37,499 nt of DNA from a virus. The translations under genes were made by a program, and so were the position numbers. Below the pieces are notes generated by a model that had not been told where the DNA came from, did no database searches, and saw nothing but the letters and a program-made list of their open reading frames with translations. The DNA lies in the IMG/VR virus record IMGVR_UViG_3300045988_057146, positions 1 through 37,499 of that record. The stretch is one strand, 5' to 3'. Below are positions 2,127 to 37,044 of this stretch, piece after piece. Within the stretch, counting starts at the first letter, position 1. Every line of letters starts with the position of its first letter.

Positions 2127-2601
2127 CGTCTTCGTTAATGATTTTATCTGCTACTTCTAATCCTTTAGTTAATACATTAGGAACGCTATATCCACATTGT
2201 ACAAGGTTCTCAATAATGCTACGCACTTCATTAATACACAAAGAAGCCAATACGAACCAACCTAATAATGTGGTTACATGAAAATCAATTCCTAGCATTT
2301 TTCCAATCTCTACCAAGAATGCACTGAACGTGAACGCAACCACAATCATAATCCAATAGCCTAGCTTTTTTAGAACTCCAATCCATCCTTTATTGCTATT
2401 GATTTTATGATTAATCGCCGACTTCATACATCCCGTAACGTAATCCACTACATTCATAAATAAGAAGAATGCAAATAAATACCAATGTTCGCCTAATACG
2501 TATGTTAATACGGCAACGGCTACACCACCCATTGCATTCATCTTGTCTAGAAAATACATACTTCTTGTTATTTGTTTAAATCCTCCATTGTTCTTTTCTA
2601 T
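2101..2601 (-). CDS. Holin (phage_holin_4_1 / TcdE-like family)
   Basis: Multiple TM helices and the motif NVVDYVTGCMKS...KGWIGVLKKLGYW...NEVRSIIENL. The ORF-track GTG (2610) lies inside the AAGGAG SD. An ATA at 2601-2599 sits 8 nt after the SD and is used here as the start. Confidence 0.8.
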   Translation of the reverse strand: MEKNNGGFKQITRSMYFLDKMNAMGGVAVAVLTYVLGEHWYLFAFFLFMNVVDYVTGCMKSAINHKINSNKGWIGVLKKLGYWIMIVVAFTFSAFLVEIGKMLGIDFHVTTLLGWFVLASLCINEVRSIIENLVQCGYSVPNVLTKGLEVADKIINEDDDESSTLE

Positions 2602-3628: not shown

Positions 3629-4498
3629 CTATAAACCTAAATACCTTTCATTGTAATAAACCGTACAAGCTAGGTTCGTATCTCCATTGTCTGCCGTGTA
3701 TCCTATGATATTCTCGCCTAACTGAATCGTCATATCATTGAATGATGAAGTTCTGTCAACTTTTCCAATACAATTCACACCATTCTTTTTGATTGAAATA
3801 GGCTCAGAAACTAAATCAATTTCTAATACATCACCATTGTGTAGCGTATCTAATACACGAATATATTTATCTTTATTAAAGAGTTTCGGATTTGTTACAT
3901 CTCCAAACGCTTCAATAACGGCTCTGCAATATGTTTCTGTATCGCCTTGATTATCAATATAAATTTCTCTAGCGAATGTAAATGTTCCAAAGTTCACGCC
4001 TGTTTCCGGTATTTCAAAATTAAACGCTAAACCTCCACCAATTTCTGCAATATTCCTTGCGAAATCATCAAATGAAAGCAATAAAGGTTGTGTGCATAGA
4101 ATTGTAAAGTTAAGCTCTAATTCTTTGTAGATGTTAGCAGTTGGTAAGCTATACGCATATAATCTACCTCTGCAATATTTCTTTTCCCCCATATACTCAA
4201 CGATAACATCAAATAAATGAGAATATTGGAAGAAGCGCCGTAGCTTCTCCCTTTCTTCTCTTTTTTCTTCTAGTGAACCTTTAAAGATAGTTTTCACACT
4301 TCTTTCTTTCGTTGGAATACGTGAACCGATTAATCTAGCGCCATTTCCAAATGCATTGTCTTGTGTCGTGTATGAAGGCGCTACATAATCAAATCCATCT
4401 AGTCCATCACTAGATGGTATTCTCCATCTTTTGTTATCAATTTCAAATTCTTTGCCATCATCCCTTCGGACGATAACTCTTACTTTATTGATGTCTAT
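3629..4498 (-). CDS. Distal tail protein (Dit, Sipho_tail-like)
   Basis: The frame is open from 4552 with no ATG/GTG/TTG before 4297. The upstream 67 codons (IDINKVRVIVRRDDGKEFEIDNKRWRIPSSDGLDGF...) look like a genuine Dit N-terminus. ATA 4498-4496 overlaps the tape-measure TAG stop and lies 9 nt after GGAGG. Confidence 0.75.
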   Translation of the reverse strand: MDINKVRVIVRRDDGKEFEIDNKRWRIPSSDGLDGFDYVAPSYTTQDNAFGNGARLIGSRIPTKERSVKTIFKGSLEEKREEREKLRRFFQYSHLFDVIVEYMGEKKYCRGRLYAYSLPTANIYKELELNFTILCTQPLLLSFDDFARNIAEIGGGLAFNFEIPETGVNFGTFTFAREIYIDNQGDTETYCRAVIEAFGDVTNPKLFNKDKYIRVLDTLHNGDVLEIDLVSEPISIKKNGVNCIGKVDRTSSFNDMTIQLGENIIGYTADNGDTNLACTVYYNERYLGL

Positions 4499-7074
4499 TG
4501 AATTACACCTCCATATCCATATCTTGCTTGCATTCTTAACATTCGAGCAATTTCATCCGGACTTTGAACTTTATTGTAGAAGTTGATTGTCTGTCCGTTG
4601 TTATTCGTTGTAACGCTAGGCATAATTTGGGCCATGTCTTTCGCTACGGCACGAATCCACGCTTTATTTCTTTCTAATGGCACGACTGCTTCTGCTCCAT
4701 TACCTTCCAACAAACCAATTTGACCGCGTTTCAATACACCACCACGTTCTAGTTTTGGAATCTTTCCAATGCTAACTCCGGGAATCTTATTGATGATACT
4801 GATTGCACCGTTAATGCCACCGATAACACCATTTACCATTCCTTTTACACTTCCAACTAATGAACTTACTGCTCCTTCAATTCCATTGAATACACCACCT
4901 ACAAATCCTTTTAAACCGCTCCATGCATTCTGTATTCCATGTAGAACATTTGAAACCTTATTTCCTACCTTATCCATCACGATTCTTATTTTTGACCACA
5001 CATCGTCAAATACATTTGAAATAGTATCTTTTACACCTGCGAAGCTAGAATCAATTATATCAATCACATTTTGTACAATATTTCCAACATTATCGAATAC
5101 ACCTTTGATAACATTCCATATGTTTTCAAATACGCTTGAAATTGACTGAAATAAACCACTTACAAATTGAATGATTGCAGATACTACTTCACTTATCTTG
5201 CTCCAAATATTTGTCGCAATAGTTACGATTAAAGACCAAATATTAGATATGATAGATGCAATGATTTGAACAATTGGCATGACAATAGACAATATTGTAG
5301 AAATTGCACTTCCAATATATGAAATTACCATACTAATAAACGAAATGATTCCACTTACAACACTTCCAACTATCGAAAGAATAGATGTGATTACAGGAAT
5401 TAATCCAACTATATTTGAAATCACCATCTTTATAATAGCTAGGATAGGTGGGCCTACTACGCTAAGAATTTTTTGAGCTTGGTTAACAATATTTTGAATT
5501 GCGTTACCGATTTTTCTTAGAATTTCTTTTGCGATAGGTTCAAGTGCAACTTTCATTTGCTCAATCGCTTTTTTTACTTCATCAAATGCAGGCTTTAAAA
5601 CTTTGGAAACTTGGTTAACGATATTTGTGATTCCACTTGTATCAATGCTACCAAATACACTTGAAATAACTTCACCAACTTTAGCAAACCCTTGTTGAAT
5701 ACCTTGTATAGCTAATGTAATTAATACAATGATACCGGAAAGAATAGGAGTAATAAGTTCGCCTATTGGAGTAAATGAATCAAGAAATGCACGCCCTAAG
5801 CCACTTAATGCGTTCTTTAAGCCACCATTTGCAATAGCTTTAACCTTATCCATTGTTCCGGCTACATTGTTATATTCATCACCTACAGATGATAAAGATG
5901 TAATAAACTTAAGGTTGAAATCTTCTCCCATTGTACCAAAAGCAATACTTGCTTTATTTAATGCTTCTTGTTGATTTGTTGTTTCCTTAATATCTTGGAC
6001 AATTGCGTCTTGCACATCTTTTTGTGTTGCGCCACCTTCTTTATATGCCTTAAAAACTTCTTTTGTCTTATCATTGAAACTATCTAACGCTCCTTCAATA
6101 GTTCCGTCTGACATTCGTGTAGTGATTTCATTTACTGCGTCTTGCATTTTATCAAGGTTATAAGAACCACCTTTTACACCATTTGTCATAGCTTGGAAAT
6201 ATTCTTTTGCCGAATATCCTGCTTGAGCAAATTTACCGGCATATTCTGCGATATTATCACCTAATTCTCCGGAATAATCTAAACCATTTTGTGCTCCTTT
6301 AGCCATAAGGTCGAAAGCTTCTTTAGAACTAATTCCAAACTGTTCCATTAATTGCTTTGCACCTCTTAATGTTTCGTTCTCGTCCATTCCATAAACGTCT
6401 CTTAATGTAATCAAATCCTCAGTAACATTCTTTAAATCAACATCACTTATTCCTTGCATTTGTTGCTTGACTCTGCCCATCATATCGGCTACATCTGAAA
6501 CATTTTCGCCAAAATTATTAGACCAAACATCACGAGCGATGTCTTTAAATTTATTCATTTCACCACTTGAAGCACCTGTTTGAGCTTGGAATTTAGCCAT
6601 AGCGTCATCTAATTCAGTAGCTTGGTTAACACCTGCCTTAATTGCTAATGCCATACCACCGATAGCTCCTGCTACGGCAGTAACGCCTACAACACCTCCC
6701 ACGCCTAATTCTGTTAGGGCATCAGTGATTGCAGTAGCTTCCGGACTGATATTCTGAATCTTTCCTAATAGTCCATCAAATCCACCTTGAATTGATTCTA
6801 AGGCACTGTTTCCGATTTGTTTAAATACATCAAACTTTGAACCTGTTTCTTGCGTTTCTGCTTGTGTATTCTTTTGCTCTTCGTTTAAATCTTTAAGTTT
6901 ATCTTTAATCTTTGGTGGTGCTTTTGAACCTTCAGAACCTAGCTTATCAATTGCTTTTGAAGTATCTTTGATAGCGTTTGTGGCTTCACTTGATACAACT
7001 TTTACCGATTTAATACCATTCTCAAGACCACTTGTATCAATTTTCGTCTCAAACTTTAATGTTCCGTCCGATAT
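4495..7074 (-). CDS. Tail tape measure protein
   Basis: Long helical and hydrophobic repeat protein in the canonical position. The frame is open up to the TGA at 7077-7075. The upstream 124 codons begin (ATA)SDGTLKFETKIDTSG, a typical tape-measure N-terminus. GGAGGTGG lies upstream. Confidence 0.85.
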   Translation of the reverse strand: MSDGTLKFETKIDTSGLENGIKSVKVVSSEATNAIKDTSKAIDKLGSEGSKAPPKIKDKLKDLNEEQKNTQAETQETGSKFDVFKQIGNSALESIQGGFDGLLGKIQNISPEATAITDALTELGVGGVVGVTAVAGAIGGMALAIKAGVNQATELDDAMAKFQAQTGASSGEMNKFKDIARDVWSNNFGENVSDVADMMGRVKQQMQGISDVDLKNVTEDLITLRDVYGMDENETLRGAKQLMEQFGISSKEAFDLMAKGAQNGLDYSGELGDNIAEYAGKFAQAGYSAKEYFQAMTNGVKGGSYNLDKMQDAVNEITTRMSDGTIEGALDSFNDKTKEVFKAYKEGGATQKDVQDAIVQDIKETTNQQEALNKASIAFGTMGEDFNLKFITSLSSVGDEYNNVAGTMDKVKAIANGGLKNALSGLGRAFLDSFTPIGELITPILSGIIVLITLAIQGIQQGFAKVGEVISSVFGSIDTSGITNIVNQVSKVLKPAFDEVKKAIEQMKVALEPIAKEILRKIGNAIQNIVNQAQKILSVVGPPILAIIKMVISNIVGLIPVITSILSIVGSVVSGIISFISMVISYIGSAISTILSIVMPIVQIIASIISNIWSLIVTIATNIWSKISEVVSAIIQFVSGLFQSISSVFENIWNVIKGVFDNVGNIVQNVIDIIDSSFAGVKDTISNVFDDVWSKIRIVMDKVGNKVSNVLHGIQNAWSGLKGFVGGVFNGIEGAVSSLVGSVKGMVNGVIGGINGAISIINKIPGVSIGKIPKLERGGVLKRGQIGLLEGNGAEAVVPLERNKAWIRAVAKDMAQIMPSVTTNNNGQTINFYNKVQSPDEIARMLRMQARYGYGGVIQ

Positions 7075-8035: not shown

Positions 8036-8542
8036 TTATACTTCTGATGTGCCTTCTGTAAATGTTACTTCTCCATCCGCTACCTTTGCAGTACCGACAC
8101 GAATATCACTTGCAAAGTTAATATTGAAGTTGATTTTTGAATCGACACCGCTCAACGTGTCAAAGATTAATTTAGCGTCAACTTCCCACGCCTTATATCC
8201 TTTTGTTTTGTCTCCATCAAACATAAATACAAGTAATGCCTTTGTATTTACTTCTTCGTTGTTTGGCACGGATTTCATCATTTTTTCGTAAATATATTCA
8301 AAATCATCTTCACCTTTAATCATTGTTAAATCTTGCGAAATCTGAGGTGAATAACTCTTTAACGATTCAGTTGGGTTCTTATCTGCGATAAAGTCATATG
8401 TTTCAGTTTCGCTATTAAATGCAATATCTAAAGTTGTAGACTTTTTAATTCGTTTGTAAGCTTCTCCCATTTGTAAGAACAATCCAATCATATACTTCTT
8501 GACTGTCTGTCCTGTATTAACTTCAGTTCCTGTAGTTGTTAT
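8036..8542 (-). CDS. Major tail protein
   Basis: The position and size fit. The frame is open 17 codons upstream of the ATG at 8491, back to a TAA. ATA 8542-8540 lies 8 nt after AAAGGAG. Confidence 0.65.
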   Translation of the reverse strand: MTTTGTEVNTGQTVKKYMIGLFLQMGEAYKRIKKSTTLDIAFNSETETYDFIADKNPTESLKSYSPQISQDLTMIKGEDDFEYIYEKMMKSVPNNEEVNTKALLVFMFDGDKTKGYKAWEVDAKLIFDTLSGVDSKINFNINFASDIRVGTAKVADGEVTFTEGTSEV

Positions 8543-8961: not shown

Positions 8962-9314
8962 TCTCCGTCTCCTATCATTTGTTGTGCTTTCTTCAAGATT
9001 GTTTCTGCTCCACCATTTCGCATAGCTTTTTCAAACCAATGGTCTGTTTTACCTCCTACGAAATGAGCATTCTCTTTATTGTAATACCAACGTCTAGCAT
9101 ATGGAGCACTTGGCCCACCTTGCTTTACTAATCCACTACCGATTTGAGTATTTCTTGTAGCCGAGTTAATCAATGCTCCTGTGTCTCTAGGCGTATAAGG
9201 GGACATAAGCCTAATGACTTCAGAATCAATCATTTGTTGAACTCGTCCACGTTCTTCAAGTCCTCTTGATTGCTTAATCTTGGGGATTGATTCAACATCA
9301 AGTTTAACTTTCAT
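8958..9314 (-). CDS. Head-tail joining protein (HK97 gp10-like)
   Basis: Start trimmed to the ATG at 9314 (MKVKLDVES...), because the longer track ORF overlaps the upstream gene. Contains the PYTPRDTGAL motif. Confidence 0.55.
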   Translation of the reverse strand: MKVKLDVESIPKIKQSRGLEERGRVQQMIDSEVIRLMSPYTPRDTGALINSATRNTQIGSGLVKQGGPSAPYARRWYYNKENAHFVGGKTDHWFEKAMRNGGAETILKKAQQMIGDGE

Positions 9315-9316
9315 TC

Positions 9317-9736
9317 CTATTGACCGACAACCTCCCAATGCTTCAACATATCGACATTCGTACAATCTGTCACACTTTGAATTGTTGTCCATTTGTATTT
9401 CTTTTTAGCTTCATTTATTGCTTTAATACTAGATAAATCTTCTTCTACTTCTCCAAAGAATACGAAATCTGTCTTATCTGTATTCAATGTGAAATGCTTT
9501 TGTTTCTCATCATTTGAAAGTTTTGCATATGCGTAAGGTTCAACATATCCCTCACGATATAGAATGGTAATATTTGTGGATGTGGCTATGCTCAGAATAT
9601 TACCGTTTGCAGTTCTAACCGTTGATTGTCTCCACATACATTTATCAAGAATAGAAGCTTGAAACCTATCTTCTCTTGTCAATGTATCGTAGTAGTGATT
9701 TACAAGTGTAATCGAATCTTCAAAGAATCCTATCAT
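9317..9736 (-). CDS. Head closure / head-tail adaptor protein
   Basis: The ATG at 9736 forms an ATGA overlap with the upstream stop. The position is syntenic. Confidence 0.5.
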   Translation of the reverse strand: MIGFFEDSITLVNHYYDTLTREDRFQASILDKCMWRQSTVRTANGNILSIATSTNITILYREGYVEPYAYAKLSNDEKQKHFTLNTDKTDFVFFGEVEEDLSSIKAINEAKKKYKWTTIQSVTDCTNVDMLKHWEVVGQ

Positions 9737-10100: not shown

Positions 10101-10250
10101 CTATTTTTTCTTTTTATCTTGAGGTTTAGCTTCCTCTTTTTCTTCTGTGGGTTCTTCTTTTACTTCTTCATCAACTTTAGGTTCTTCAGCTTTTGGTTGT
10201 TCAACCTCTTTAGTGATAGAAGGATAACCCCATCCAATTTCCGTTGCCAT
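10101..10250 (-). CDS. Small charged ORF (49 aa) after the capsid gene
   Basis: TAATG overlap with the capsid stop. Translation MATEIGWGYPSITKEVEQPKAEEPKVDEE...KKKK. It is below the ORF-track length cutoff and the SD is weak. Confidence 0.3.
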   Translation of the reverse strand: MATEIGWGYPSITKEVEQPKAEEPKVDEEVKEEPTEEKEEAKPQDKKKK

Positions 10251-11119
10251 TACTTTGCACTAGCAGATAAGTAGATACCTGCTACCTTATTGGCGTATAC
10301 ATCAACGATTCCATACTTACGATATTTCAATACATCTGAATCCGATTCAATGTTATTGCTTGCCGGAATTACATTTGAAACAGTATGTTTATCCCATTTC
10401 ATGACGGAAGGTTTGTGAACAATCAAAAAGTTGATTACGTGTCCATCCTCTGCCTTCTTATATCCACCGTCTAACTCTGTATCTTTTCCACTCAACAATT
10501 TAATTTTCGTATAGAAGCGTGTTGAAGGTACAGGAACAACCTTTGCGAATCCTTGTAAAGCTTCACGAGATTTGTAAGTGTCCAACGCCTTAACACTATT
10601 TAATAAAGTAGGTGTTGAATATAAAATACGTTGTTCACTAGGTACTTCATCTTCATCCATTTTAGTAGTGGCTTTTAATAATGCGCTCAAGAATGTTTCT
10701 GCATCTGCGAAATCTTCGGCAACTGTTGTGATTCCTTCTGTTCCTGCAATTTTAGCGAATGTGTAAGCGTCTGCTTCCGGTGCTACCTTTGTACGCATAA
10801 GTTCCGCTCCTGCTCTACCGAACGCAATATTCATTGATTCCGCATTATCTTGAGTATCAACTGCAATCTTTGTTCCTCTATCATAGTCGAATGTAGCAGT
10901 TTTCCACTCTAATGTCACTGCGTTAGATGTATAACCACTATTTCTATCATAGTCTCCTAAACCTTTGACGGAAATTTGTGGATAGATGATTTCTTTTGCG
11001 TTTGCTCCTGCTCGTACCATTGTAGCGTCTGCGTTCAAATCACCTGTAACTGAAGCTAACTTATATACCTCATCCAAATTTGAGACATACGTTTTAGCTA
11101 ATGCAATTTGATTTGCTAT
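10250..11119 (-). CDS. Major capsid protein
   Basis: Follows the scaffold gene. The frame is open 14 codons upstream of the TTG at 11077, back to a TAA. (ATA)ANQIALAKTYVSNLDEVYK looks like the native N-terminus. ATA 11119-11117 lies 9 nt after AGGAGG. Confidence 0.8.
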   Translation of the reverse strand: MANQIALAKTYVSNLDEVYKLASVTGDLNADATMVRAGANAKEIIYPQISVKGLGDYDRNSGYTSNAVTLEWKTATFDYDRGTKIAVDTQDNAESMNIAFGRAGAELMRTKVAPEADAYTFAKIAGTEGITTVAEDFADAETFLSALLKATTKMDEDEVPSEQRILYSTPTLLNSVKALDTYKSREALQGFAKVVPVPSTRFYTKIKLLSGKDTELDGGYKKAEDGHVINFLIVHKPSVMKWDKHTVSNVIPASNNIESDSDVLKYRKYGIVDVYANKVAGIYLSASAK

Positions 11120-15925: not shown

Positions 15926-16731
15926 GATTTCACCTTATAAGTCCAATCTGTACCGACTTCACCTTCATCAACTTCATACGCCCAATCGGCTAGAATCTCT
16001 TGTCCGTTCTCGTCTACAAGCGTTCCGTCATCTGATAAAAGAATCGTAGTGAAATGGTTGTTCATAAGCATTTGCTCAACATTTGCGATTCGATTCATCA
16101 ACTTACCTGCCGTATTTGAATCCAATGTATCTTTTACACTCGCAAACCATTCATTGAATTCATTCTCGTTTGCTTTCATTTCAGATTGATTCTGTTCTTT
16201 TACTTCTTTGAATAATTCGGTCATTTGTGTGAATAAGTCTAATGTTTCAACACTCTTGATAGCATTTGTAACTGCCCCACAACGTGTAGAATCTAGCCTT
16301 GTATCAGTAATATTTGAGCCTTTGATTTCACTTGCATTTCCTTCTACTGTAACCGTAGCCAATACTAAATCATAAATAGAATCACTTCTCGTAATTCCAT
16401 TGTTGATGTCGCTTGATAATAAGACAATGTTTCTGTAAGCATCATTATCATTCAATCTAAGAATGATGTTGTAGCTTTTAGTAGCAGTATTCTTTTCTAG
16501 TGTGATGGCTTCGTCATCTTTCTGCCAATAGAATGCTCCATTGATATTTGCTCTTCCTGCTTTAACTGTTAATGTTAAACCTTGAGCCTTCTCAACTCTT
16601 AAATGGTCAGAACTAGAATCATCTATGAATACACCATTTGTAAAATAACTTGAGAACAACCTTCTAAAAGCGTCATATAGTACTAATCTATCACCATTTC
16701 TTGAGACGAACGGAAAATATGTAGTTGCTAT
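15922..16731 (-). CDS. Phage structural (fibre-module) protein, 269 aa
   Basis: The frame is open 24 codons upstream of the TTG at 16659. (ATA)ATTYFPFVSRNGDRLVLYDAFRRLFSSYFTNGVF looks like the native N-terminus. ATA 16731-16729 overlaps the portal TAG stop and has GAGGAGGA upstream. Confidence 0.6.
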   Translation of the reverse strand: MATTYFPFVSRNGDRLVLYDAFRRLFSSYFTNGVFIDDSSSDHLRVEKAQGLTLTVKAGRANINGAFYWQKDDEAITLEKNTATKSYNIILRLNDNDAYRNIVLLSSDINNGITRSDSIYDLVLATVTVEGNASEIKGSNITDTRLDSTRCGAVTNAIKSVETLDLFTQMTELFKEVKEQNQSEMKANENEFNEWFASVKDTLDSNTAGKLMNRIANVEQMLMNNHFTTILLSDDGTLVDENGQEILADWAYEVDEGEVGTDWTYKVKS

Positions 16732-18131
16732 TCTTCTTCATCCTCCTCTCCATCATCTTGAATTTCTTCATTTAATAACTCAGTTGCTTCTTCTTCAGTA
16801 AAGCCATATTGCTTCATGAAATACATAATCTTTAATCTTGGAATATCAAATGTTAGTGCGTCATTTCTTAACGCTTGTGCCGTGCTTTGTTTATCCTCGA
16901 TATATGTATCGTCATAATCAATCGCAATGTCTAATGAATTGATATTAAGCTTTCTACCTTGTGTTAATTCATAGAAGTATGCTATTGCTTGAATAATATC
17001 TTGAATATATGCAGTAGATTCTTTACGTTGTGAATTTACTTCCTTCATTGCGTCTTGATTCTCACCGATATATTCTGTTGCCGTTACAATTCTTCCGCTT
17101 TCAAATGTGTATTTCTTTGTGCCGAATCCAAACATCATTGATAAGATACTTAATGCAGTTTCTAGCGATTGAACAACTTCCGCCGTCCTTACCGTTGGAT
17201 TATATTCCTGCCATAAGGCTTTTTCTTCCGGTAATTTGTCTCTACCTAACTGAACAAATATCTTTTTCATTTGTGGATTCATCTTAATCTTTCCATTCTC
17301 GTCTTTTTGCATTAATGCTTCATTTACAAGAACGATTTTATCCGATTTCAATAAATCTCGATTCCACATTGTCATTGTTAAATCAATCGTTTTTAGTGGA
17401 GCAATTGCACTCCAAATCTTTGGTAAGCCGTACCCTTGCATTTGTAAGTTGTTGACCTTTGCATTTCTCATAATTGCAAAAGGCTTAACCACATCTAATT
17501 GAACAATCTGTGCACGGTCTTTTATTTCTTCGCCTGTATCTTTAAAGTAATGTGTTTCTGCAATATATCTTTCGTCTTGTCCTTTTAAGAACATAACCAT
17601 CACATATACTTTTTTCAGTTTCTCGTAATTTACTCCAACGAATGCTACTTCCACAATTTCATCATTGATAACAGTTAATGGAAGGATATTCATTGAATCA
17701 CAATAGTTGATTCTAATTTCTCCTCCACTGAATGTACCATCTTCATAAATCTCGGCATTAGATACTGTCACATAAGCTCCTACAGTACCATTTGCAGACA
17801 TTTGCTCAACTTGTTTCCTATACATTACATCAAACCTATTCTTCGTTAGAATGTCTGAAATAATGTCATTTGTAGTACTGTCCTCTGTTGCGTTTATATC
17901 TAGGATTTCAATTAGGTTTGCGTCATCCTCGCATAAACGTTTCGCAAAGTCTGTTTTATCCAATGTGTATTCCTCATTGTTCAAGGTGTATGCCGTATGA
18001 AATTCTGTTTCGGTATTTGTGTACCATTTGTTGCACAATTCAATAATTTCAATTGCGTTTGTATCTACATAATACCCTCTATCGTTTAGGTAATTCTGAA
18101 ACCACGGTCTACGTGTGTTAGATGTTTCTAT
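16728..18131 (-). CDS. Portal protein (SPP1 gp6-like)
   Basis: Immediately follows terL. The frame is open 31 codons upstream of the TTG at 18038. ATA 18131-18129 lies 6 nt after GGAGG, and the terL stop falls in between. Confidence 0.85.
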   Translation of the reverse strand: METSNTRRPWFQNYLNDRGYYVDTNAIEIIELCNKWYTNTETEFHTAYTLNNEEYTLDKTDFAKRLCEDDANLIEILDINATEDSTTNDIISDILTKNRFDVMYRKQVEQMSANGTVGAYVTVSNAEIYEDGTFSGGEIRINYCDSMNILPLTVINDEIVEVAFVGVNYEKLKKVYVMVMFLKGQDERYIAETHYFKDTGEEIKDRAQIVQLDVVKPFAIMRNAKVNNLQMQGYGLPKIWSAIAPLKTIDLTMTMWNRDLLKSDKIVLVNEALMQKDENGKIKMNPQMKKIFVQLGRDKLPEEKALWQEYNPTVRTAEVVQSLETALSILSMMFGFGTKKYTFESGRIVTATEYIGENQDAMKEVNSQRKESTAYIQDIIQAIAYFYELTQGRKLNINSLDIAIDYDDTYIEDKQSTAQALRNDALTFDIPRLKIMYFMKQYGFTEEEATELLNEEIQDDGEEDEEE

Positions 18132-19953: not shown

Positions 19954-21261
19954 CTAGACGTGTCTTGCTTCTTCTGTTTCAAGTTCTGTAATCTCCTCTG
20001 TTCTTTTTAAGAATGTTACTGAATTATCATATTCGTAAACGATGTCATTATTTTCATCAAATCCTACAGGCTTTAGAACCTTTTCAAAAATCTTGTAAGG
20101 TGATTGTCCTGCTTTTGGTGAATTCCATAAATAATGCAAATAATCCTTCATTGTCATTCCTGCATATTTCGCCCTAGCTTCTGACGTATTTGTATTGAAG
20201 CCAATCGCTTTGTTACGCTCAAAATCTAAGAAGTACATATCCTTTTCAATATCTTTCCAATGTACTCTTCCATGTTTCTTTGCAATTTGTAAAGCTCCAC
20301 TAAAATTTCCTCTTGAGTAATCCCAATTCTTATCTAATGCACAACAACAACAGTTATTCGAGCATTCTTTAAAGTGTGCGTCTGATACATAGAATCTCAT
20401 GCCTAATTCATCACATAGTTCTTTCATCTTTTGAATGTATTTAGCCTTTACTTTTCTGTTAAGTCTTAAATATCCACTTCCATTTGAATGTTTTCTATAA
20501 AAATCTACAATATCAAATCCTGCACATTCACTAATCACATCATAATGCTCCTTAGCTTGCTTAATAGAGCGCATTTCTAAGCAAAAGAACTCTGTAGTAA
20601 CCGCAGTAGCTCCTGCCTTTTTGGCTTCTCTAATTAAATCTAGGTAGGTTTTATCTGATACTCCTACAATAAATGGACGCAACCTTAAAGTTGCACCACC
20701 TTTTGATAATTCAGTGTATTTTTTCATTGCTTCAAGTCTTTTCCTTGGACTTGGTACACCTACTTCGATTTTTCTTGCGTCCTCTTCATCTAGTGTGATG
20801 ATACTAAACTTAACATTCCAATTATCTGCGCCTTTGAACAATTCTTGATATTTAGGGTCGTTAAATACCCATGCCGATTTCGTACTAAAACAGATAGGAT
20901 AGTTAATAGATTTCAAATACTTGAGCATTTCATAGGTTTTACCATATTTCTTTTCATATCCGTCGAATTGGTCTGATAAACCACCATATTGAATAGGACG
21001 TCTGTCTTTAATGTATTTATAGAATTGTGATTTTGTATCTTCTCCACTGAAAATCTTTTTGCATTTCTCAACATTGATACATTTCACATCTTTATTAAGA
21101 TATGCTTCTTTACTTGCACCAATACCTCTTTGATATTGGCTAAAACAATAAACACATCCAAATGAACAGTTGGAATATGTGTCAAATGTTACCGGTAATG
21201 AGCAATCTGCGATTTCTCCTGTCCATCTTGGTGATAAATATGTCTCACTGATTTTATTCAC
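19954..21261 (-). CDS. Radical SAM enzyme (SplB / COG1533-like)
   Basis: CSFGCVYC CxxxCxxC cluster near the N-terminus and a second Cys cluster, CSNNCCCC. The GTG start lies 6 nt after GGAGGA. Confidence 0.75.
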   Translation of the reverse strand: MNKISETYLSPRWTGEIADCSLPVTFDTYSNCSFGCVYCFSQYQRGIGASKEAYLNKDVKCINVEKCKKIFSGEDTKSQFYKYIKDRRPIQYGGLSDQFDGYEKKYGKTYEMLKYLKSINYPICFSTKSAWVFNDPKYQELFKGADNWNVKFSIITLDEEDARKIEVGVPSPRKRLEAMKKYTELSKGGATLRLRPFIVGVSDKTYLDLIREAKKAGATAVTTEFFCLEMRSIKQAKEHYDVISECAGFDIVDFYRKHSNGSGYLRLNRKVKAKYIQKMKELCDELGMRFYVSDAHFKECSNNCCCCALDKNWDYSRGNFSGALQIAKKHGRVHWKDIEKDMYFLDFERNKAIGFNTNTSEARAKYAGMTMKDYLHYLWNSPKAGQSPYKIFEKVLKPVGFDENNDIVYEYDNSVTFLKRTEEITELETEEARHV

Positions 21262-21262
21262 C

Positions 21263-22030
21263 TTATATCCTCCATTTTCTTTTAATAATTAAGTTATTTC
21301 CTCTAATTGTTACCATGTCATCATATTTTCTTTTCAATAAATTTAGATATTGCTTTTGTATGTTTGTGGTTTTATATATTTCATAATATCCGCCTTTTTC
21401 TTTTCCCATTCTTGCTTTATTTGCAATAATGGTATTATTGCGTGCTATAATCTCTCCTTGTCTTATCAATCTAAGACATAGTTCATAGTCATCTAAAATT
21501 TTCATTTTTTCATCATATACAATCTTGTTATTTTTTATAATGAAATTGAATCCACCTTGCAAAAGTGTGTTATACGAATATTTTTCACCTGTCCTATTTA
21601 GCTTTGAAATGTTCATTTTATTGTCGATTGATATTACACCCGCATAATTAATTCCGTTTTTCTGCATAAAATCAAATATCTTTTTAACTTCACGCTCAAA
21701 CTTATTTGTCAAATTTATTAAACGTCCACATTTAGTTTCTGAACATTCATACCATTTTTGAAAGGGCCTTATATCATCATCTAACAATAGTATTTTTGAA
21801 CCATTTTCAAATTGATTTAGACATGTATTCCTATTGAATGATACATACATACCTTCTCTTAAAATGATTCTCGCTCGGCTTCCTAAATTCTGCCTGTAAG
21901 CTTTATAATCATTTGAATCATTTAAACATACAACAATTCTTTCATCTTCAATCCCACATTCTTTTAGTGCGTGATATGTTTTACATTTTGGTCTATGATA
22001 ACTTGCTATTGCATAATAGATGTTATTCAT
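21263..22030 (-). CDS. GT-A-fold glycosyltransferase-like protein
   Basis: N-terminal beta-strand IASYHRP and an acidic LLLDDDI motif suggest a DxD glycosyltransferase. It is translationally coupled to both neighbours. The fold call is tentative. Confidence 0.4.
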   Translation of the reverse strand: MNNIYYAIASYHRPKCKTYHALKECGIEDERIVVCLNDSNDYKAYRQNLGSRARIILREGMYVSFNRNTCLNQFENGSKILLLDDDIRPFQKWYECSETKCGRLINLTNKFEREVKKIFDFMQKNGINYAGVISIDNKMNISKLNRTGEKYSYNTLLQGGFNFIIKNNKIVYDEKMKILDDYELCLRLIRQGEIIARNNTIIANKARMGKEKGGYYEIYKTTNIQKQYLNLLKRKYDDMVTIRGNNLIIKRKWRI

Positions 22031-22604
22031 GCATTAATTCCTTGATGTCGTAGCACACTTTTAATTCAGTTACCTGTAAAAGTTTCTCTAAGAATAGTTG
22101 TTCTTCCTCTGTTTCATATGTAATGATTACACGTTGCTTTTTTAGCATTTCTTCTGAATGTTCGCTAAATGCGTCCATAAGCTCATTATCATATCCTTCC
22201 GCTTCCATATCCTCAGTTAATGCACTAATTTCAAAATCGCCGAATCCGAAATCTCTCATGTCGATTCCGTCAATTTCTTCAAGCTCTTCCATTTCTGTTT
22301 TTAATGCGTCTAAATCCCATGAAGCTTTTTCTGCCGTTTTATTATCTGCAATTCTAAACGCTTTTACTTGCTCATCTGTTAAATCATCTGCAACCACGCA
22401 AGGAACAGTTTCTAAGCCTAATTCTTGACTAGCTTTATATCGTGTATGACCTGCAACAATCACTCCATTTTTATCAATAACAATAGGCACTTTGAAGCCG
22501 AACTCCTCAATAGAATTTTTAACAAATTTCACTGCTCCATCATTGATTCTAGGGTTATTCTCATAAGGCTTTAGCTCATTTAATCTTTTTTCAACAATGT
22601 TCAT
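22023..22604 (-). CDS. ParB-like nuclease (ParB N-terminal) domain protein
   Basis: LKPYENNPRINDGAVKFVKNSIEEFGFKVPIVIDKNGVIVAGHTRYKA is a classic ParB/Srx motif. A strong SD is present. Confidence 0.8.
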   Translation of the reverse strand: MNIVEKRLNELKPYENNPRINDGAVKFVKNSIEEFGFKVPIVIDKNGVIVAGHTRYKASQELGLETVPCVVADDLTDEQVKAFRIADNKTAEKASWDLDALKTEMEELEEIDGIDMRDFGFGDFEISALTEDMEAEGYDNELMDAFSEHSEEMLKKQRVIITYETEEEQLFLEKLLQVTELKVCYDIKELMHE

Positions 22605-22728: not shown

Positions 22729-22804
22729 TGGTTGCAGGAGAAGGATTTGCACCGTTCGACCTCTAGCTAATAAGACTAGTGAGCTACTACTGCTCTATCC
22801 TGCT
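22729..22804 (-). tRNA. Non-canonical tRNA-like gene, anticodon UAU (reads AUA)
   Basis: Hand-folded 76-nt cloverleaf. Acceptor AGCAGGA/TCCTGCA has 6 bp plus an A1xA72 mismatch. U8 is present. D stem is GAGC/GCTC (A11:U24). Anticodon stem is CTAGT/GCTAG with loop CTTATTA, giving anticodon TAT at 22772-22770. T arm is GAA(C)GG-TGCAAAT-CCTTC. A73 and an encoded CCA follow. Odd features are a bulged C in the T stem, G55, a D loop without GG, and U37. Confidence 0.6.
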
Positions 22805-22821
22805 AACACAATTATTACATG

Positions 22822-22844
22822 AAAAAATGCTCACATTGTGAGCA
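22822..22844 (-). terminator. Rho-independent terminator overlapping the 3' end of the regulator gene (hairpin copy 2)
   Basis: TGCTCAC/GTGAGCA stem followed by T6 on the minus strand. It contains GCTCACATTGTGAGC. Confidence 0.6.
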
Positions 22845-23157
22845 CTTTTTTTAAATTCTTGTTTATTTTTCTTGGAATTTCTTCTCTCGCATAGCCTACA
22901 ATATTAGATGTCTTTTCTGCACTGAATCCCTTTATATATCTATACTCAATCATGGCTCGAGTCGTATCATCAAGTTGGCTTAATTTGTCTTTTACATAGT
23001 TCATTCTTCTTGCATAATCCGCATGAGCCAAGAATAACTCGGCTTTTAAAGGATAAATTGCTTCATCTCTTTGTAGCTCTGCTATCTTTTGCTCATAGTA
23101 TGTATAAGATTGGCATTCGCATAGAAAATGCTTTTTAACTTCTTCATATGTGCTCAT
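22831..23157 (-). CDS. Late-gene transcriptional regulator-like protein (ArpU/RinA/sigma region-4-like)
   Basis: 108 aa. C-terminal RAMIEYRYIKGFSAEKTSNIVGYAREEIPRKINKNLKK is HTH-like. It is the last early gene before the packaging module. Confidence 0.5.
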   Translation of the reverse strand: MSTYEEVKKHFLCECQSYTYYEQKIAELQRDEAIYPLKAELFLAHADYARRMNYVKDKLSQLDDTTRAMIEYRYIKGFSAEKTSNIVGYAREEIPRKINKNLKKVLTM

Positions 23158-26666: not shown

Positions 26667-27407
26667 CTACGCTCCAAATAGTTGTGCTCTAAGCCTATTA
26701 AATTCATCTTGGACTTCTTTATCTGTCTTTGTGTTCTGCTCTGCATAAAACTTTGAATCAAGTGTGATAGGCTTATCTTTATTTCTTTTGGTCCATTCAT
26801 CATGTACCCATTTTTGAATCACTAGTGAATGGTTTTTGTATTTTTTTCCACTCGTTTCAATATATTCATCTAATATCTTTATATGCTCATCTAATGAATC
26901 ACCATATAAATCTAATAGGTGTGTGTGTTCTTTATCTGTAAGTAACACGTGTGAATATTCTCCATATTTATGTTTACTTTGTTTATTAGTATTTAATTTA
27001 TTAGTATTTGGTTTATTAGTATCTTTATAAGTGTAGGGGTTTTCAAGTACTTGAGTTTCAACACCTTGCTTTTCAATACCTTGATTTTCAAGGGGTTGAA
27101 AATCCACCTCTTGAGGATTCTCAAAGAATGTATATTGATATTGAATTCTATTGCTATTTGCGTTCGGATATATCTTCTCTACTCTTAAATATCCATTCTT
27201 TTTTAATTCCTTAATTGCACTTTCAACTGAATCTTTCCCATCTTTTACAATTCCAACTAATCCATTTACTGTATAATGCCATTCTTCCGGTAAACCAAGA
27301 ACAACACTTAACAAGCCTATTGCTTTAAGTGATAAGCGTTTATCTTTTAAATGTGTATTGCTCATCACTGTATAGTTTCTGTTCTTAATAACTCTAATTA
27401 CTGCTAT
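26667..27407 (-). CDS. Replication initiator / replisome organiser (winged-helix N-terminus, DnaD-like C-terminus)
   Basis: NYTVMSNTHLKDKRLSLKAIGLLSVVL... is an N-terminal wHTH, and the gene contains internal iterons. The TTG at 27422 lacks an SD. ATA 27407-27405 lies 8 nt after GGAGG. Confidence 0.6.
   Translation of the reverse strand: MAVIRVIKNRNYTVMSNTHLKDKRLSLKAIGLLSVVLGLPEEWHYTVNGLVGIVKDGKDSVESAIKELKKNGYLRVEKIYPNANSNRIQYQYTFFENPQEVDFQPLENQGIEKQGVETQVLENPYTYKDTNKPNTNKLNTNKQSKHKYGEYSHVLLTDKEHTHLLDLYGDSLDEHIKILDEYIETSGKKYKNHSLVIQKWVHDEWTKRNKDKPITLDSKFYAEQNTKTDKEVQDEFNRLRAQLFGA
26982..27099. repeat. Two sets of 15-bp-phased iterons (candidate origin) inside the initiator gene
   Basis: Three copies of TTTATTAGTAT(TT) at 26982, 26997 and 27012. 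Four copies of TTTTCAAnACCTTGA-like units at 27040, 27055, 27070 and 27085. Confidence 0.65.
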
Positions 27408-27753: not shown

Positions 27754-28118
27754 AATATTTCTACCTCTATCCTTGGATTTTCTTTATCGGTAAATACTGT
27801 ATGATTCACTTGATTAATGTATTTTCTTGAATCATCTTCAAGTATTCCCGTTCTAACTAATGAATCTTGAATGAATTTAGTTGCGAATGTGATATTGTCT
27901 ATATCTCTTCTGTTATCCGGCTCATACCAATTAATATTTAATTTAATTGGGTAGTTCTTGACTTCGTAAACTTCACCGAAATTCACTGCCTGTAAGATAT
28001 AAGCCATTACAAGACGCTCGTTCTTTTTCACCATTTCTGCTCCCTTGTAACGATTAGCTCGGCAAGCTCTAATATATTCATTCAATCCATCTAATTTTCC
28101 TTTAATAACAAACTTTAT
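27750..28118 (-). CDS. rusA: RusA-family Holliday junction resolvase
   Basis: RRDIDNITFATKFIQDSLVRTGILEDD motif. The frame is open 11 codons upstream of the TTG at 28085. (ATA)KFVIKGKLDGLNEYIRACRANRYKGA is the typical Gram-positive RusA N-terminus. ATA 28118-28116 overlaps the upstream TAA stop and lies 7 nt after GGGGG. Confidence 0.75.
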   Translation of the reverse strand: MKFVIKGKLDGLNEYIRACRANRYKGAEMVKKNERLVMAYILQAVNFGEVYEVKNYPIKLNINWYEPDNRRDIDNITFATKFIQDSLVRTGILEDDSRKYINQVNHTVFTDKENPRIEVEIL

Positions 28119-34270: not shown

Positions 34271-34600
34271 TTACCATTCCTCAACATCTTTAATTGTATA
34301 TGATTCCATATCAAATATCTTTTCTTCTTCGTCCCATCCTTCAACGCAAATTTCGCATGGCACTTCAATTGTATCAACATATCCATAAATGTGATGTACT
34401 TCAATCACGATACATCCTTCTAAATATCCTACGTCACCTTTCCGTTCAATCATATCTAGGCAATCGTTGATATCTGTAGTTCTAATTCCTTTCTTATCAT
34501 AGTAGTATAAATCTCTGCCAGTGTTTAATTCATCCGCTTTCTTTACGAAATCAGTGTGTTCTCCAAATTCCTTGTAATTCATCAATTGTTCTTTTGTCAT
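34271..34600 (-). CDS. Hypothetical protein (109 aa)
   Basis: Start trimmed to the ATG at 34600, after AAGGAGGAAC. Confidence 0.5.
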   Translation of the reverse strand: MTKEQLMNYKEFGEHTDFVKKADELNTGRDLYYYDKKGIRTTDINDCLDMIERKGDVGYLEGCIVIEVHHIYGYVDTIEVPCEICVEGWDEEEKIFDMESYTIKDVEEW

Positions 34601-34613
34601 CTTGTGTTCCTCC

Positions 34614-34859
34614 TTATTCAATTGTGATTTTCTTTCCAAAAATATCGTTGTATCTGTTACTACTAGAATACCACTTATCACTAAACATATCATAATATTT
34701 TACGATTAATGGATTCTTTTTTCCTGTAACAATATGAACATAATCCATATTGCTTGGCATAGAATGGACATATTCGTCCATTCTATTTTTAAGACTTATC
34801 AATGAGTTGCTTTCGTCAACAACTTCTCCTTTAACAATTGCATAATATTTAAATGTCAT
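34614..34859 (-). CDS. Hypothetical protein (81 aa)
   Basis: AAGGAGGG lies 8 nt before the ATG. Confidence 0.5.
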   Translation of the reverse strand: MTFKYYAIVKGEVVDESNSLISLKNRMDEYVHSMPSNMDYVHIVTGKKNPLIVKYYDMFSDKWYSSSNRYNDIFGKKITIE

Positions 34860-35268: not shown

Positions 35269-36993
35269 TTATTTAAATAGTTTCGACACCTTTTTTAATA
35301 ACTTTAAAATCAAAGTGATAATCCGATTGATTCCATCTACATTAATTTTATCTTTTTTTGAATCATTACTTGAATCATCTTTTTTAGAATTGCTCAACTC
35401 ATCCAAATATTGTGATACTAATGATTTAAAATCATCCCATCCCTCATCAAGAATCTTGTGTGGGCAATATTTATAATTACCACTTGTCATCTTGTAATCA
35501 TGGTGCTTTTTCAAGCAATCAATACTCAATCCATATTTATACAATAATTCAGATGCAAGTCTTGCTCCATTCTCTCTAGCTTTTTTCCATTCATCTTGTG
35601 AATCGTTATCATTATCCTTGGCGATTTCGATTTGGATACCTGTTCTATTACCAAGTCCATATGCTCCATCACCTGTTGCAAATGCATTACGATTCAATGG
35701 TAATGATTCGATGATGTCTTTATCATCCACCGAGAAATGCCATGATTTATATTCCTTCGAATTATGCAATGCATTATTTAAAGCTCTAGCAGTTCCATTT
35801 GGTGTAGCCGAGTTATGAATGATGATTGCTTGAGGTTTATTCATCAAATAAGGGCATTTGTACGGATACAAGCTCTTATCAATTAAATCAACTGTAACTC
35901 CATCATGATTATAAACTTCATCTTTTACATCGTGACCTTCATATTCTCCTTTATTGACTGAACTAAATCCATTTGTATTTTCTGTTGGTGTAGGCGTTGG
36001 CTTAACTTCTTCTTTTTTTTCTTCTTCCGGTGAAGTAAATGTTGCCCACATTTGACTTCTATCTTCGGTTGCTGAAACTGCTAAGAATACTTTTCTTGAA
36101 CCATCTTTATACACAATATATCTGTGCCCATTGCCCACATATTTCCAGTAATAACGAATTGAATCACCAGTGTTGTATGTCTTACATACTGTGCCAGTTG
36201 GAGAATCATAACGCGCTCTCACGCCGTCTACAGTAAATGTAGCAATGCCATCTTCTTGTGTTAATGTAATAGATTCAACAGGTTTTTGTTCTTCGATAGC
36301 ACTAAAGTCTGCCCATGGTTCAGTACCAGCTTCATTACCATTTACTGCAACGAAATAACGATAGCTTGCACCATCCGCTTGATGTTCAACCCAACTAATA
36401 TATCTATGGCCGTTACCAACCCATTTTTGGGTATATTCTAATTTTCTGCCACTTTTCAATGTTTCAACCGCCAAACCTGTAGGTGTATCTCTTCGCTTTT
36501 GAATATCATATTTAAGCGTAGCATAAGCGTGCTCATCTATTAGTTTAGATTCGCTATAATCGCTATTTTGAGCTTGATTTACGAAACATTTAGGTCTAAA
36601 TGCAGTATCAAAGGTAGCACTGTATGGAAGTTTACATAAATTAAATGCCCCATTTACTCCACCTTGGTTCTGCCCTAAGAACCAACCGTATCCACCACTT
36701 GCGTCGTGGTCGAAAATTGCAATGTGCGAGTATGGAGTCCATCCTGCTACTTCTCTAAATACTGCAATATCACCAGGTTGCATAACAGTGACTTCATTAC
36801 AATAATTTAAGATTCCATTTGTTTTTCGATTGTTCCAAATGTCTTTTGCATAACCGCTTGTAGTACAGTGAATTGCTTTATATCCTAAATCAATCATGTA
36901 CTTCATAGTTCCATCCCAACACTGAGCACCATAATATCCGTCAATGTCGAATGCTTTGCCTAATACGGCTTTTTTAAAATCTTGATAATTTAT
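35269..36993 (-). CDS. Endolysin: CHAP, two SH3b-like repeats and an Amidase_2 (PGRP) domain
   Basis: The CHAP catalytic motif GAQCWDG lies upstream of the first ATG (36906). The frame is open back to a TAA, and ATA 36993-36991 lies 9 nt after AAGGAGGA. NGHRYI(S/V) repeats appear twice. The amidase motifs are IIIHNSAT...GIQIEIA...YCPHK. Confidence 0.85.
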   Translation of the reverse strand: MNYQDFKKAVLGKAFDIDGYYGAQCWDGTMKYMIDLGYKAIHCTTSGYAKDIWNNRKTNGILNYCNEVTVMQPGDIAVFREVAGWTPYSHIAIFDHDASGGYGWFLGQNQGGVNGAFNLCKLPYSATFDTAFRPKCFVNQAQNSDYSESKLIDEHAYATLKYDIQKRRDTPTGLAVETLKSGRKLEYTQKWVGNGHRYISWVEHQADGASYRYFVAVNGNEAGTEPWADFSAIEEQKPVESITLTQEDGIATFTVDGVRARYDSPTGTVCKTYNTGDSIRYYWKYVGNGHRYIVYKDGSRKVFLAVSATEDRSQMWATFTSPEEEKKEEVKPTPTPTENTNGFSSVNKGEYEGHDVKDEVYNHDGVTVDLIDKSLYPYKCPYLMNKPQAIIIHNSATPNGTARALNNALHNSKEYKSWHFSVDDKDIIESLPLNRNAFATGDGAYGLGNRTGIQIEIAKDNDNDSQDEWKKARENGARLASELLYKYGLSIDCLKKHHDYKMTSGNYKYCPHKILDEGWDDFKSLVSQYLDELSNSKKDDSSNDSKKDKINVDGINRIITLILKLLKKVSKLFK

Positions 36994-37044
36994 TAAAAAA
37001 AATCCTCCTTATATGTCGATTATAGCACATAAAGAGGATATTTA

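Follow-up and report, generated by a model that had tools for sequence, protein, structure and literature searches.

A lysin gene probably started at ATA and a phage tRNA with anticodon UAU in a temperate Holdemanella siphophage

The lysin gene and its start

The IMG/VR virus record IMGVR_UViG_3300045988_057146, whose 37,499 nucleotides (nt) were analysed in full and are referred to here as the window, derives from a temperate siphophage of Holdemanella and encodes on its minus strand an endolysin composed of a CHAP domain, two repeated binding-type modules, an Amidase_2 domain and a C-terminal amphipathic helix. The reading frame of this lysin has its stop end at 35269 and is closed upstream by an in-frame TAA, and its translation appears to begin at an ATA codon. 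The same phage encodes a tRNA whose anticodon, UAU, is fully complementary to AUA (coordinates of all these features are collected in Table 1).

Read on the minus strand, the region around the lysin start is ...CGACATATAAGGAGGATTTTTTTTAATAAATTATCAAGAT..., in which a strong Shine-Dalgarno sequence (SD) is separated from ATA by a 9-nt spacer, TTTTTTTTA. From ATA the frame runs through 29 codons (I/M-NYQDFKKAVLGKAFDIDGYYGAQCWDGT) before it meets the first ATG, GTG or TTG, which is the ATG at 36906-36904, and inspection of the sequence in front of this ATG revealed no SD. The original prediction had placed 29 in-frame codons containing QCWD ahead of ATG 36906, in an open stretch that begins immediately after a TAA, and both statements can be read directly from the minus strand, the TAA overlapping the SD. 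The further claim that ATA 36993 is the sole start-like codon of this stretch has to be narrowed, since ATA does stand 9 nt after the SD but TTA 36996 lies in the stretch as well; TTA is not plausible as a start.

The CHAP domain itself depends on the upstream codons. Pfam detected CHAP (PF05257) only in the ATA-started protein, over residues 18-109 and with 27.0 bits against a cutoff of 26, and gave no CHAP match at E<=0.01 for the ATG-started protein; Amidase_2 was detected in both versions. When the lysin was aligned with solved CHAP domains (LytN and lysin L2), the GxQC(F/W)D motif fell on the stretch upstream of ATG 36906, as the prediction required. In these structures DFDGSFGWQCFD is paired with DIDGYYGAQCWD, GAQCWD of the lysin with GWQCFD, and the region of the catalytic His aligns too (YSHIAIF with YGHTAI); LysK (4csh) was also among the structure matches of the lysin CHAP domain. 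By its profile and its Cys/His motifs, the lysin is classified as a putative CHAP-domain peptidoglycan hydrolase. A product initiated at ATG 36906 would lose the CHAP Ca-loop together with Cys25, in agreement with the earlier statement that such a protein lacks its active-site Cys.

Related lysins point to the same start. Those at 84% identity begin with MTYEQFKNQVLGK... (MTYEQFK) and those at 91% identity in the CHAP domain with MNYNDFK..., and in both groups an ATG, immediately preceded by a stop codon or by an SD (L001, L097-L101), occupies the codon aligned with the ATA of the window. A lysin at 81% identity (L092/L093) retains ATA although the SD context in front of it is another one (AAAGGAGG plus 9 nt). 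Among relatives at 81-91% identity, the 29 upstream codons are kept as protein, including the Ca-loop and QCWD. A run of T upstream of the gene has 7 T in some relatives versus 8 T in the window, shifting the upstream frame, and this difference in length indicates that the sequence further upstream is not conserved as coding; in the relatives with 7 T (P0006, P0019, P0052) gene callers reach back to an ATG located just upstream of a TATAAT box. With the aligned ATG of the homologs and a CHAP match found only for the ATA version, the proposal that ATA 36993 is the functional start is upheld, and the lysin very probably starts there.

The identical phage is present in independent ENA and JGI assemblies, where the lysin is called from ATG 36906 or 36897 and has no CHAP match. 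Public proteins of the lysin family (P0001-P0005, P0023, P0081, P0096, P0098) are mostly truncated at the N-terminus (542-551 amino acids (aa), without a CHAP match) and others are falsely extended (MINILFMCYNRH...), because gene callers ignore ATA. In some relatives of the lysin, a GH25 muramidase (PF01183) replaces the C-terminal Amidase_2.

ATA starts in the phage clade and a tRNA with anticodon UAU

ATA starts were searched for in the whole phage genome as strong SDs followed by an open frame, with gene identities taken from PHROG and Pfam. Seven genes have an ATA start and no usable canonical start, encoding the lysin, the portal, a head protein, the major capsid, a tail-region protein, the tape measure and the distal tail protein (Dit), and three further genes, encoding a holin-like protein, a replication initiator and a RusA-like resolvase, probably use ATA starts as well. 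ATA-started genes represent about 10 of the 58 genes in the window, and late structural or lysis genes account for 8 of the 10 sites; an SD-anchored census of the window counted 7 ATA starts without a canonical alternative versus 20 ATG starts. In the case of the major head protein, the alignment with the PHROG capsid profile starts at residue 2 of the ATA-started protein. The original prediction had stressed that the phenomenon resides in a lysis gene whose premature expression would be lethal. This setting fits as one part of the picture, but the argument is insufficient alone because the genes of the major capsid, the portal, the tape measure and replication begin with ATA too, and ATA is not a lysis-specific brake.

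Table 1. Window coordinates of the lysin start site, the ATA starts and the phage tRNA
Feature	Position	Strand	Remarks
Endolysin coding sequence as revised	35269..36993	minus	574 codons plus stop
In-frame TAA closing the lysin frame upstream	37009..37011	minus	overlaps SD AAGGAGGA
Shine-Dalgarno sequence AAGGAGGA	37003..37010	minus	9 nt before ATA; pairing energy with the 16S tail -11.1 kcal/mol
Lysin ATA start codon	36991..36993	minus	A at -1 (36994)
TGT, Cys25 counted from ATA	36919..36921	minus	CHAP nucleophile in GAQCWD
First canonical start codon, internal Met30	36904..36906	minus	used by public gene calls, giving a 545-aa protein without CHAP match
Portal ATA start	18129..18131	minus	ATA in 32/32 relatives; also L186
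Head (MuF-like) protein ATA start	16729..16731	minus	ATAG overlap with portal stop; ATA in 32/32 relatives
Major head protein (capsid) ATA start	11117..11119	minus	ATA in 35 relatives; ATG at the same codon in 23 distant homologs
168-aa tail-region protein (phrog_3099) ATA start	8540..8542	minus	TAATA overlap with upstream stop
Tape measure ATA start	7072..7074	minus	first canonical start 124 codons downstream; ATA in 32/32 relatives
Dit ATA start	4496..4498	minus	ATAG overlap with tape measure stop; ATA in 28/28 relatives
Holin-like protein, probable ATA start	2599..2601	minus	GTG three codons upstream sits within SD
Replication initiator, probable ATA start	27405..27407	minus	TTG five codons upstream sits within SD
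RusA-like resolvase, probable ATA start	28116..28118	minus	downstream TTG is CTA in relative L183
Phage tRNA(UAU)	22729..22804	minus	73 nt (22804-22732) plus templated CCA; Rfam RF00005, 48.8 bits
Anticodon UAU (34-36)	22770..22772	minus	in invariant loop CUUAUUA

To follow the start codon through the relatives of the phage, 58 capsid-gene loci were gathered from IMG/VR. In all 35 loci at >=91% capsid identity the start region reads TAA-TTA-ATA, the second codon and the SD spacing being variable, and all 23 loci at 46-58% identity have ATG at the aligned start codon. The gene at 15316 starts with ATG in the window and with ATA in 15 relatives. In a rough comparison of synonymous sites, made without phylogenetic correction, 46% of the A-ending two-fold sites show G in some relative and the third base of the ATA starts never does, which suggests that the A of the ATA start is maintained, not merely tolerated. 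Counted across the clade, the SD-anchored starts are 188 ATA, 200 ATG, 35 GTG, 3 TTG, 1 ATT, 0 ATC and 0 CTG, versus 4 ATA (mostly an ATA beside a real ATG) and 219 ATG in the distant relatives. Within genes, ATA codons number 0 in the major capsid gene (10250-11119), 1 in the lysin, 17 in TerL and 13 in the tape measure gene.

The host of this clade is Holdemanella, as evidenced by prophage-form IMG/VR contigs that carry flanking genes with the exact proteins of Holdemanella biformis, H. porci or Holdemanella sp. In about 80 kb of partly overlapping Holdemanella loci, no ATA starts were found among approximately 40-45 distinct SD-anchored starts, and the 40 called genes begin with ATG (38), GTG (1) or TTG (1); the other Holdemanella prophages that were sampled showed no ATA starts either. 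Internal ATA codons of the phage align in distant homologs with I (50%), V and L, as ATT and ATC codons do, with M outside the seven commonest residues, and the phage uses ATA at 14.7 per 1000 codons compared to 14.0 in the non-ribosomal genes of the host (the ribosomal-protein operon of the host has almost no ATA, 1.9 per 1000 codons). The phenomenon is restricted to the ATA codon, to the initiation step and to this clade of phages. An integrated copy of the exact phage was sought by look-up of the integrase sequence, which returned phage-form contigs only. Megablast searches of the GenBank phages with the lysin region and with a 20-kb part of the window gave no close cultured relative, and tblastn with the portal and capsid proteins retrieved only distant gut-metagenome and mixed Firmicute phages.

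Other accounts of ATA use were considered and rejected. That the host is generally lax in its choice of start codons is contradicted by the sampled host loci, which contain no ATA, ATT or ATC starts. A-to-I editing of the third base of the start codon does not agree with the editing motif of TadA, TACG, as ATA is followed by G, A or T and then by a varied base, never by CG. A connection of ATA use with the module of ParB-like, TET-associated glycosyltransferase (TAGT) and radical-SAM genes encoded by the phage was discarded too, given that the module is absent from about half of the clade and ATA use persists there.

The phage tRNA is located at the early/late gene boundary, within a 226-nt gap that has on one side the gene of a protein weakly related to sigma-70 region 4 and on the other the ParB-like gene that opens the late region, and it is flanked by terminator-like hairpins. 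ARAGORN found no tRNA in the window or in 24 clade loci, and tRNA(UAU) was detected by Rfam only. Its cloverleaf is backed by 5 pairs with compensatory changes, including the anticodon stem (CUAGU/GCUAG vs UCGGU/GCCGA), where U31.G39 is replaced by C31:G39 and G30:C40 is invariant. Among 35 IMG/VR contigs, nine UAU variants with an invariant anticodon loop were identified. No clade locus covering the region is without the tRNA, and it co-occurs with ATA starts in the lineages where the late genes are readable.

The body of this tRNA resembles that of an initiator. The 1:72 position is unpaired in 10 of 11 variants, with A1xA72 in 9/9 UAU variants; L186 has C1xA72, and the CAU relatives of the tRNA have G1xA72 or G1xG72, except for one with U1:A72. 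G2:C71, C3:G70 and A73, invariant in 11/11 variants, are the same as in Escherichia coli metZ, and the 3' end GCAACCA matches the E. coli initiator, not the elongator Met or Ile2. The D stem is GAGC/GCUC (A11:U24) as in metZ, while E. coli metT and ileX have GCUC/GAGC; A11:U24 is a mark of initiators, elongators having Y11:R24. A covariance model built from the 11 variants scored the E. coli initiator at 64.2 bits, ileX at 49.4, the host tRNA-Lys at 47.6 and metT at 40.3. The 1:72 mismatch and the acceptor-stem features are bacterial initiator marks that are recognised by the formylase (PMC5389676). A missing pair at 1:72 also makes binding by EF-Tu less favourable. Compared with an initiator, tRNA(UAU) departs in having UAU instead of the anticodon CAU; compared with an elongator tRNA-Ile(UAU), it shares the anticodon and lacks the elongator body (paired 1:72, Y11:R24 and a purine at position 37). 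Position 37 is U in tRNA(UAU), whereas tRNAs reading ANN codons carry a threonylcarbamoyl-adenosine there (t6A37).

The nearest GenBank phage tRNAs are annotated as tRNA-Met, and CAU is the anticodon of homologs that share the unusual D and T loops of tRNA(UAU) (L126/L166 with G1xA72; L127 and others). Relatives at 53% capsid identity, which start their genes with ATG, have a tRNA-Met(CAU) that is initiator-like in textbook fashion, showing G1xG72, A11:U24 and the three G:C pairs; in L038-L043 and L059, gut siphophages, this tRNA is located at about 9260-9331, approximately 700 nt upstream of the capsid gene. Phage-borne initiator tRNAs appear to be recurrent in this wider group. UAU/U37 tRNAs with canonical D and T loops occur in L183 and L186. 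L183 is a fragment of the early region; its replication gene still has ATA and its RusA TTG is changed to CTA. In L186 the tRNA adjoins a diverged portal gene starting AAGGAGGTAAGGGA-ATA. Contigs of about 190 kb (L127, L154, L165) contain arrays of about 20 tRNAs that include a CAU homolog of the window tRNA (U1:A72), adjoining a 96-nt tRNA that ARAGORN names tRNA-Ile(tat) and that may contain an intron.

How the ATA codons may be read

The geometry of the start sites, the ATG codons aligned in homologs, the conservation of ATA, its restriction to the clade and the features of the tRNA are the observations on which a mechanism can be proposed. Translation of the lysin would begin at ATA 36993, placed by the strong SD 9 nt upstream, and would produce a 574-residue CHAP-Amidase_2 lysin with Cys25 as nucleophile. 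The phage tRNA (22804-22729) would be derived from an initiator tRNA-Met by changes of the anticodon from CAU to UAU and of position 37 from A to U, and would decode about ten A-ATA sites in the ribosomal P site by means of four base pairs, mRNA A(-1)-A-U-A against tRNA U37-U36-A35-U34. This tRNA would be charged with Ile or Met and formylated by virtue of its initiator-type acceptor stem. ATA would then be a phage-private start codon, efficient only with the phage tRNA, while internal ATA stays Ile, and the translation of late genes would be tied to expression of the tRNA and would remain at a low level in the lysogen. Initiation at ATA based on a phage tRNA is considered probable in this temperate Holdemanella siphophage, and we infer that the phage tRNA rather than the host tRNA-fMet reads ATA, with the formylation, the amino acid and the late-gene gating following as parts of the same scheme. 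For the complete scheme, a private initiation channel of a temperate phage of a human-gut Firmicute in which the UAU/U37 initiator tRNA reads A-AUA on about ten mostly late genes and is needed for efficient synthesis of the capsid, portal, tail and lysis proteins, the late genes of the prophage being translationally silent in the lysogen, the balance tips only slightly in favour.

The base preceding the start codon is relevant in this context. A is present at -1 in 41 of the 42 distinct ATA contexts of the clade, which derive from about 10-12 gene families and are not phylogenetically independent, and -2 and -3 vary freely; at ATG starts the corresponding value is 60% and at GTG starts 31%. 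A(-1) is complementary to U37, and in the phage tRNA the A37 to U37 change accompanies the C34 to U34 change. As such pairing of position 37 is impossible in elongation, the match between U37 and A(-1) points to initiation. Pairing between the initiator tRNA's position 37 and the mRNA base at -1 has been demonstrated experimentally in E. coli, including an A37U mutant (PMC10018350). The -1 A statistic is suggestive, not decisive.

Several points, to which the common descent of the ATA contexts belongs, weigh against the phage tRNA as the dedicated initiator. Methionyl-tRNA synthetase depends strongly on C34, which makes the amino-acid identity of the phage tRNA uncertain. The window tRNA is without G18G19 and has the T-loop UGCAAAU and a bulged T stem. 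Instead of the three hallmark G:C pairs of initiators (29:41, 30:40 and 31:39), it has A29:U41, G30:C40 and U31.G39, a second variant having G:C, G:C and U.G at these pairs; in E. coli the middle pair G30:C40 suffices and au/GC/gu variants are natural (PMC5389676). In addition, initiator-like UAU tRNAs with A37 were detected in other IMG/VR contigs (L171, L173/L185, L176, L196; GC 0.45-0.64), and inspection of short fragments of L171, L173, L176 and L196 showed no ATA starts. Finally, AUA starts with extended SDs reach 10-30% of AUG in Staphylococcus aureus (PMC13009471), so that a host tRNA could suffice, and the median SD pairing of the ATA genes is stronger (-12.6 vs -9.5 kcal/mol), a comparison biased by the way in which the ATA starts were found.

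These last points introduce the most serious competitor, in which ATA is the true start but is read by the host tRNA-fMet(CAU) through a third-position mismatch with the help of strong SDs, the tRNA(UAU) being an elongator Ile tRNA or having another role, such as the replacement of tRNAs hit by a defence system of the host, and ATA serving to lower or tune late genes. The strong or extended SDs and the conserved non-canonical codon are what is expected of near-cognate initiation. UAU is formally a tRNA-Ile anticodon, a Bacillus subtilis tRNA-Ile with unmodified UAU is functional, supports a wild-type growth rate and binds AUA strongly and AUG weakly (PMC3919564), and UAU initiator-like tRNAs exist, as mentioned, in phages where ATA starts were not seen. 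On the other hand, no ATA starts occur in the host loci or in the other Holdemanella phages sampled, and the clade rich in ATA starts is the clade with the UAU tRNA. ATA alone is used, not ATT, ATC or CTG, and it heads the gene of the most abundant virion protein, which does not resemble a rare, low-expression regulatory use of several near-cognate codons that is shared with the host. The tRNA itself departs from an elongator Ile tRNA in its 1:72 mismatch, A11:U24 and U37, the last of which is matched by the A at -1, and there is no codon-usage reason for an additional elongator because the use of ATA by the phage is close to, and not above, that of the host. Reading by the host tRNA is for these reasons regarded as unlikely, though it deserves to be kept in mind.

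Initiation of the lysin at ATG 36906, with an amidase-only enzyme as product and the upstream CHAP-like codons as a decaying remnant, would be in accordance with the public gene calls and with an intact Amidase_2. This possibility is very improbable considering that the ATG has no SD, that the 29 upstream codons with the Ca-loop and QCWD are conserved as protein at 81-91% identity, that the rest of the CHAP domain, including the His, is encoded downstream of the ATG and would serve no purpose if Cys25 were missing, and that the pattern recurs in essential genes, the tape measure losing 124 residues if started at its first canonical codon.

Even less credence can be given to ATA as an artefact (an error of sequencing or assembly, or a modified base misread as A) or to entry into the frame from the upstream ATG (37032-37030, immediately ahead of the TATAAT) through slippage on the T8 run. 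The T8 lies just upstream of the gene, the T7 relatives (P0006, P0019, P0052) have the upstream ATG in frame, and the ParB-like/TAGT/radical-SAM module may modify DNA. However, the same ATA is present in independent ENA, JGI, Logan and IMG/VR assemblies, ATG codons, both internal and at starts, are read normally elsewhere in the genome, and the lineages devoid of the module use ATA all the same; with respect to slippage, the other ATA starts have no T-run, and the upstream ATG has no SD and overlaps the TATAAT box. Reassignment of ATA to Met, phage-wide or in the host, could be suspected from a UAU anticodon on a tRNA of Met-type ancestry and is equally hard to credit, as internal ATA aligns with I, V and L, with Met outside the seven commonest residues, and the frequencies of ATA and ATG are ordinary and equal to those of the host.

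Genome context and comparison with known systems

The region 19954-22604 (minus strand), just upstream of terS, comprises genes for a ParB_N-like protein (22604-22023), a TAGT (PF20691; 22030-21263) and a radical SAM protein of the PA0069/Rv2578c type (21261-19954, GTG start). This three-gene set looks like a DNA-modification or repair accessory module; in the clade loci, radical-SAM was detected 12 times, ParB 4 and TAGT 2, with flanks that often end before those genes. On the other side of the tRNA, 22831-23157 (minus strand) encodes a 108-aa protein with weak matches (E ~1e-3) to sigma-70 region 4. Its gene directly precedes the tRNA and the late genes, and the protein may be a late-gene activator. 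Prophage-form contigs diverge from the window approximately 130 nt upstream of the integrase start (~33948), between the integrase (33818-32724) and the small genes at 34271-34859, and this loss of similarity places attP there. The flanks of the clade differ, containing either a Ser/Thr kinase gene or the gene of a 150-aa protein downstream of rplQ and a methyltransferase, and with such different Holdemanella flanking genes more than one integration site seems to be used.

Genetic code table 11 permits ATA as a start, and examples of such starts are already known. In the full-text literature (subscription journals not covered), no report was found of a phage in which ATA starts are frequent or of a genome with ATA heading a large share of genes, nor of a natural initiator-type tRNA with UAU or another non-CAU anticodon. 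If the proposed mechanism is true, this would be, as far as could be found, the first case in nature, among bacteria and their viruses, of a non-AUG start defined by an initiator tRNA dedicated to it. The rewiring of a start codon, the compensation of a weak codon by 37/-1 pairing and the gating of late genes at the initiation step would become testable, and a ready orthogonal pair of initiator tRNA and start codon would be provided for synthetic biology in Firmicutes. As initiator-like UAU tRNAs occur in other viral contigs, the device may be more widespread and annotated as tRNA-Ile, which is the label that naming based on the anticodon would give to such tRNAs. Whatever the mechanism, gene callers restricted to ATG, GTG and TTG mis-annotate about 1/6 of the genes in a common human-gut phage clade, and public databases contain a lysin without its catalytic Cys and a tape measure that is probably short by 124 residues.

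With regard to its protein, the phage lysin shares with the streptococcal lysins B30/PlyGBS and the staphylococcal LysK/LytN an N-terminal CHAP domain with the pattern D-x-D-G...G-x-Q-C-W/F-D, and it is 45% identical to the B30 lysin from residue 3. It differs from them in the combination of CHAP, two repeats, a C-terminal Amidase_2 and an amphipathic tail, as well as in its ATA start.

The closest natural precedents for the start codon are infC, ccpN, cvfC1 and citZ of S. aureus and B. subtilis, which have conserved AUA/AUU starts (PMC13009471). They resemble the phage genes in the Firmicute setting, in the position of the non-AUG start directly after an extended SD and in the conservation of the codon among relatives. 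Unlike the phage genes, they are isolated regulatory genes, weakly read by the host tRNA-fMet(CAU), and use both AUU and AUA; in the phage, about 10 of 58 genes, including the major capsid, use ATA only, the host makes no use of ATA, and a matching phage tRNA is present.

Engineered anticodon mutants of E. coli tRNA-fMet initiate at non-AUG codons, and amber initiators serve for orthogonal initiation. These have in common with the phage tRNA an initiator scaffold (1:72 mismatch, G2:C71, C3:G70, A11:U24) in which a changed anticodon leads to a new start codon. They are laboratory constructs, whereas the phage tRNA is natural, conserved in its clade, accompanied by many start sites in the genome, and carries in addition the A37U change matched by the -1 A. 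The quadruplet pairing between position 37 and -1 described in E. coli (PMC10018350, and earlier chloroplast work cited there) is alike in that an A37U initiator favours a -1 A. It is a modest effect of A37:U(-1) in E. coli, while in the phage U37:A(-1), found in nearly all contexts, would offset a codon-anticodon helix made entirely of A:U pairs.

In mitochondria, tRNA-Met reads AUA by means of 5-formylcytidine (f5C34) or, in some bivalve mitochondria, of UAU anticodons. Common to both would be an AUA start decoded by a tRNA of Met type whose wobble base is changed or modified, but mitochondrial AUA means Met everywhere and one tRNA serves in initiation and elongation, and internal AUA of the phage is Ile. 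Phages that recode stop codons with their own suppressor tRNAs have been proposed to gate late and lysis genes in this manner. In those phages a phage tRNA alters the reading of a codon, as it would in the present one, and in both cases the codons concerned are concentrated in late structural and lysis genes and gene callers mis-annotate the genomes. Recoding of stops acts in elongation, whereas the ATA system would act on the start codon, in initiation, leaving internal ATA unchanged, and if confirmed it would represent the start-codon counterpart of stop-codon recoding.

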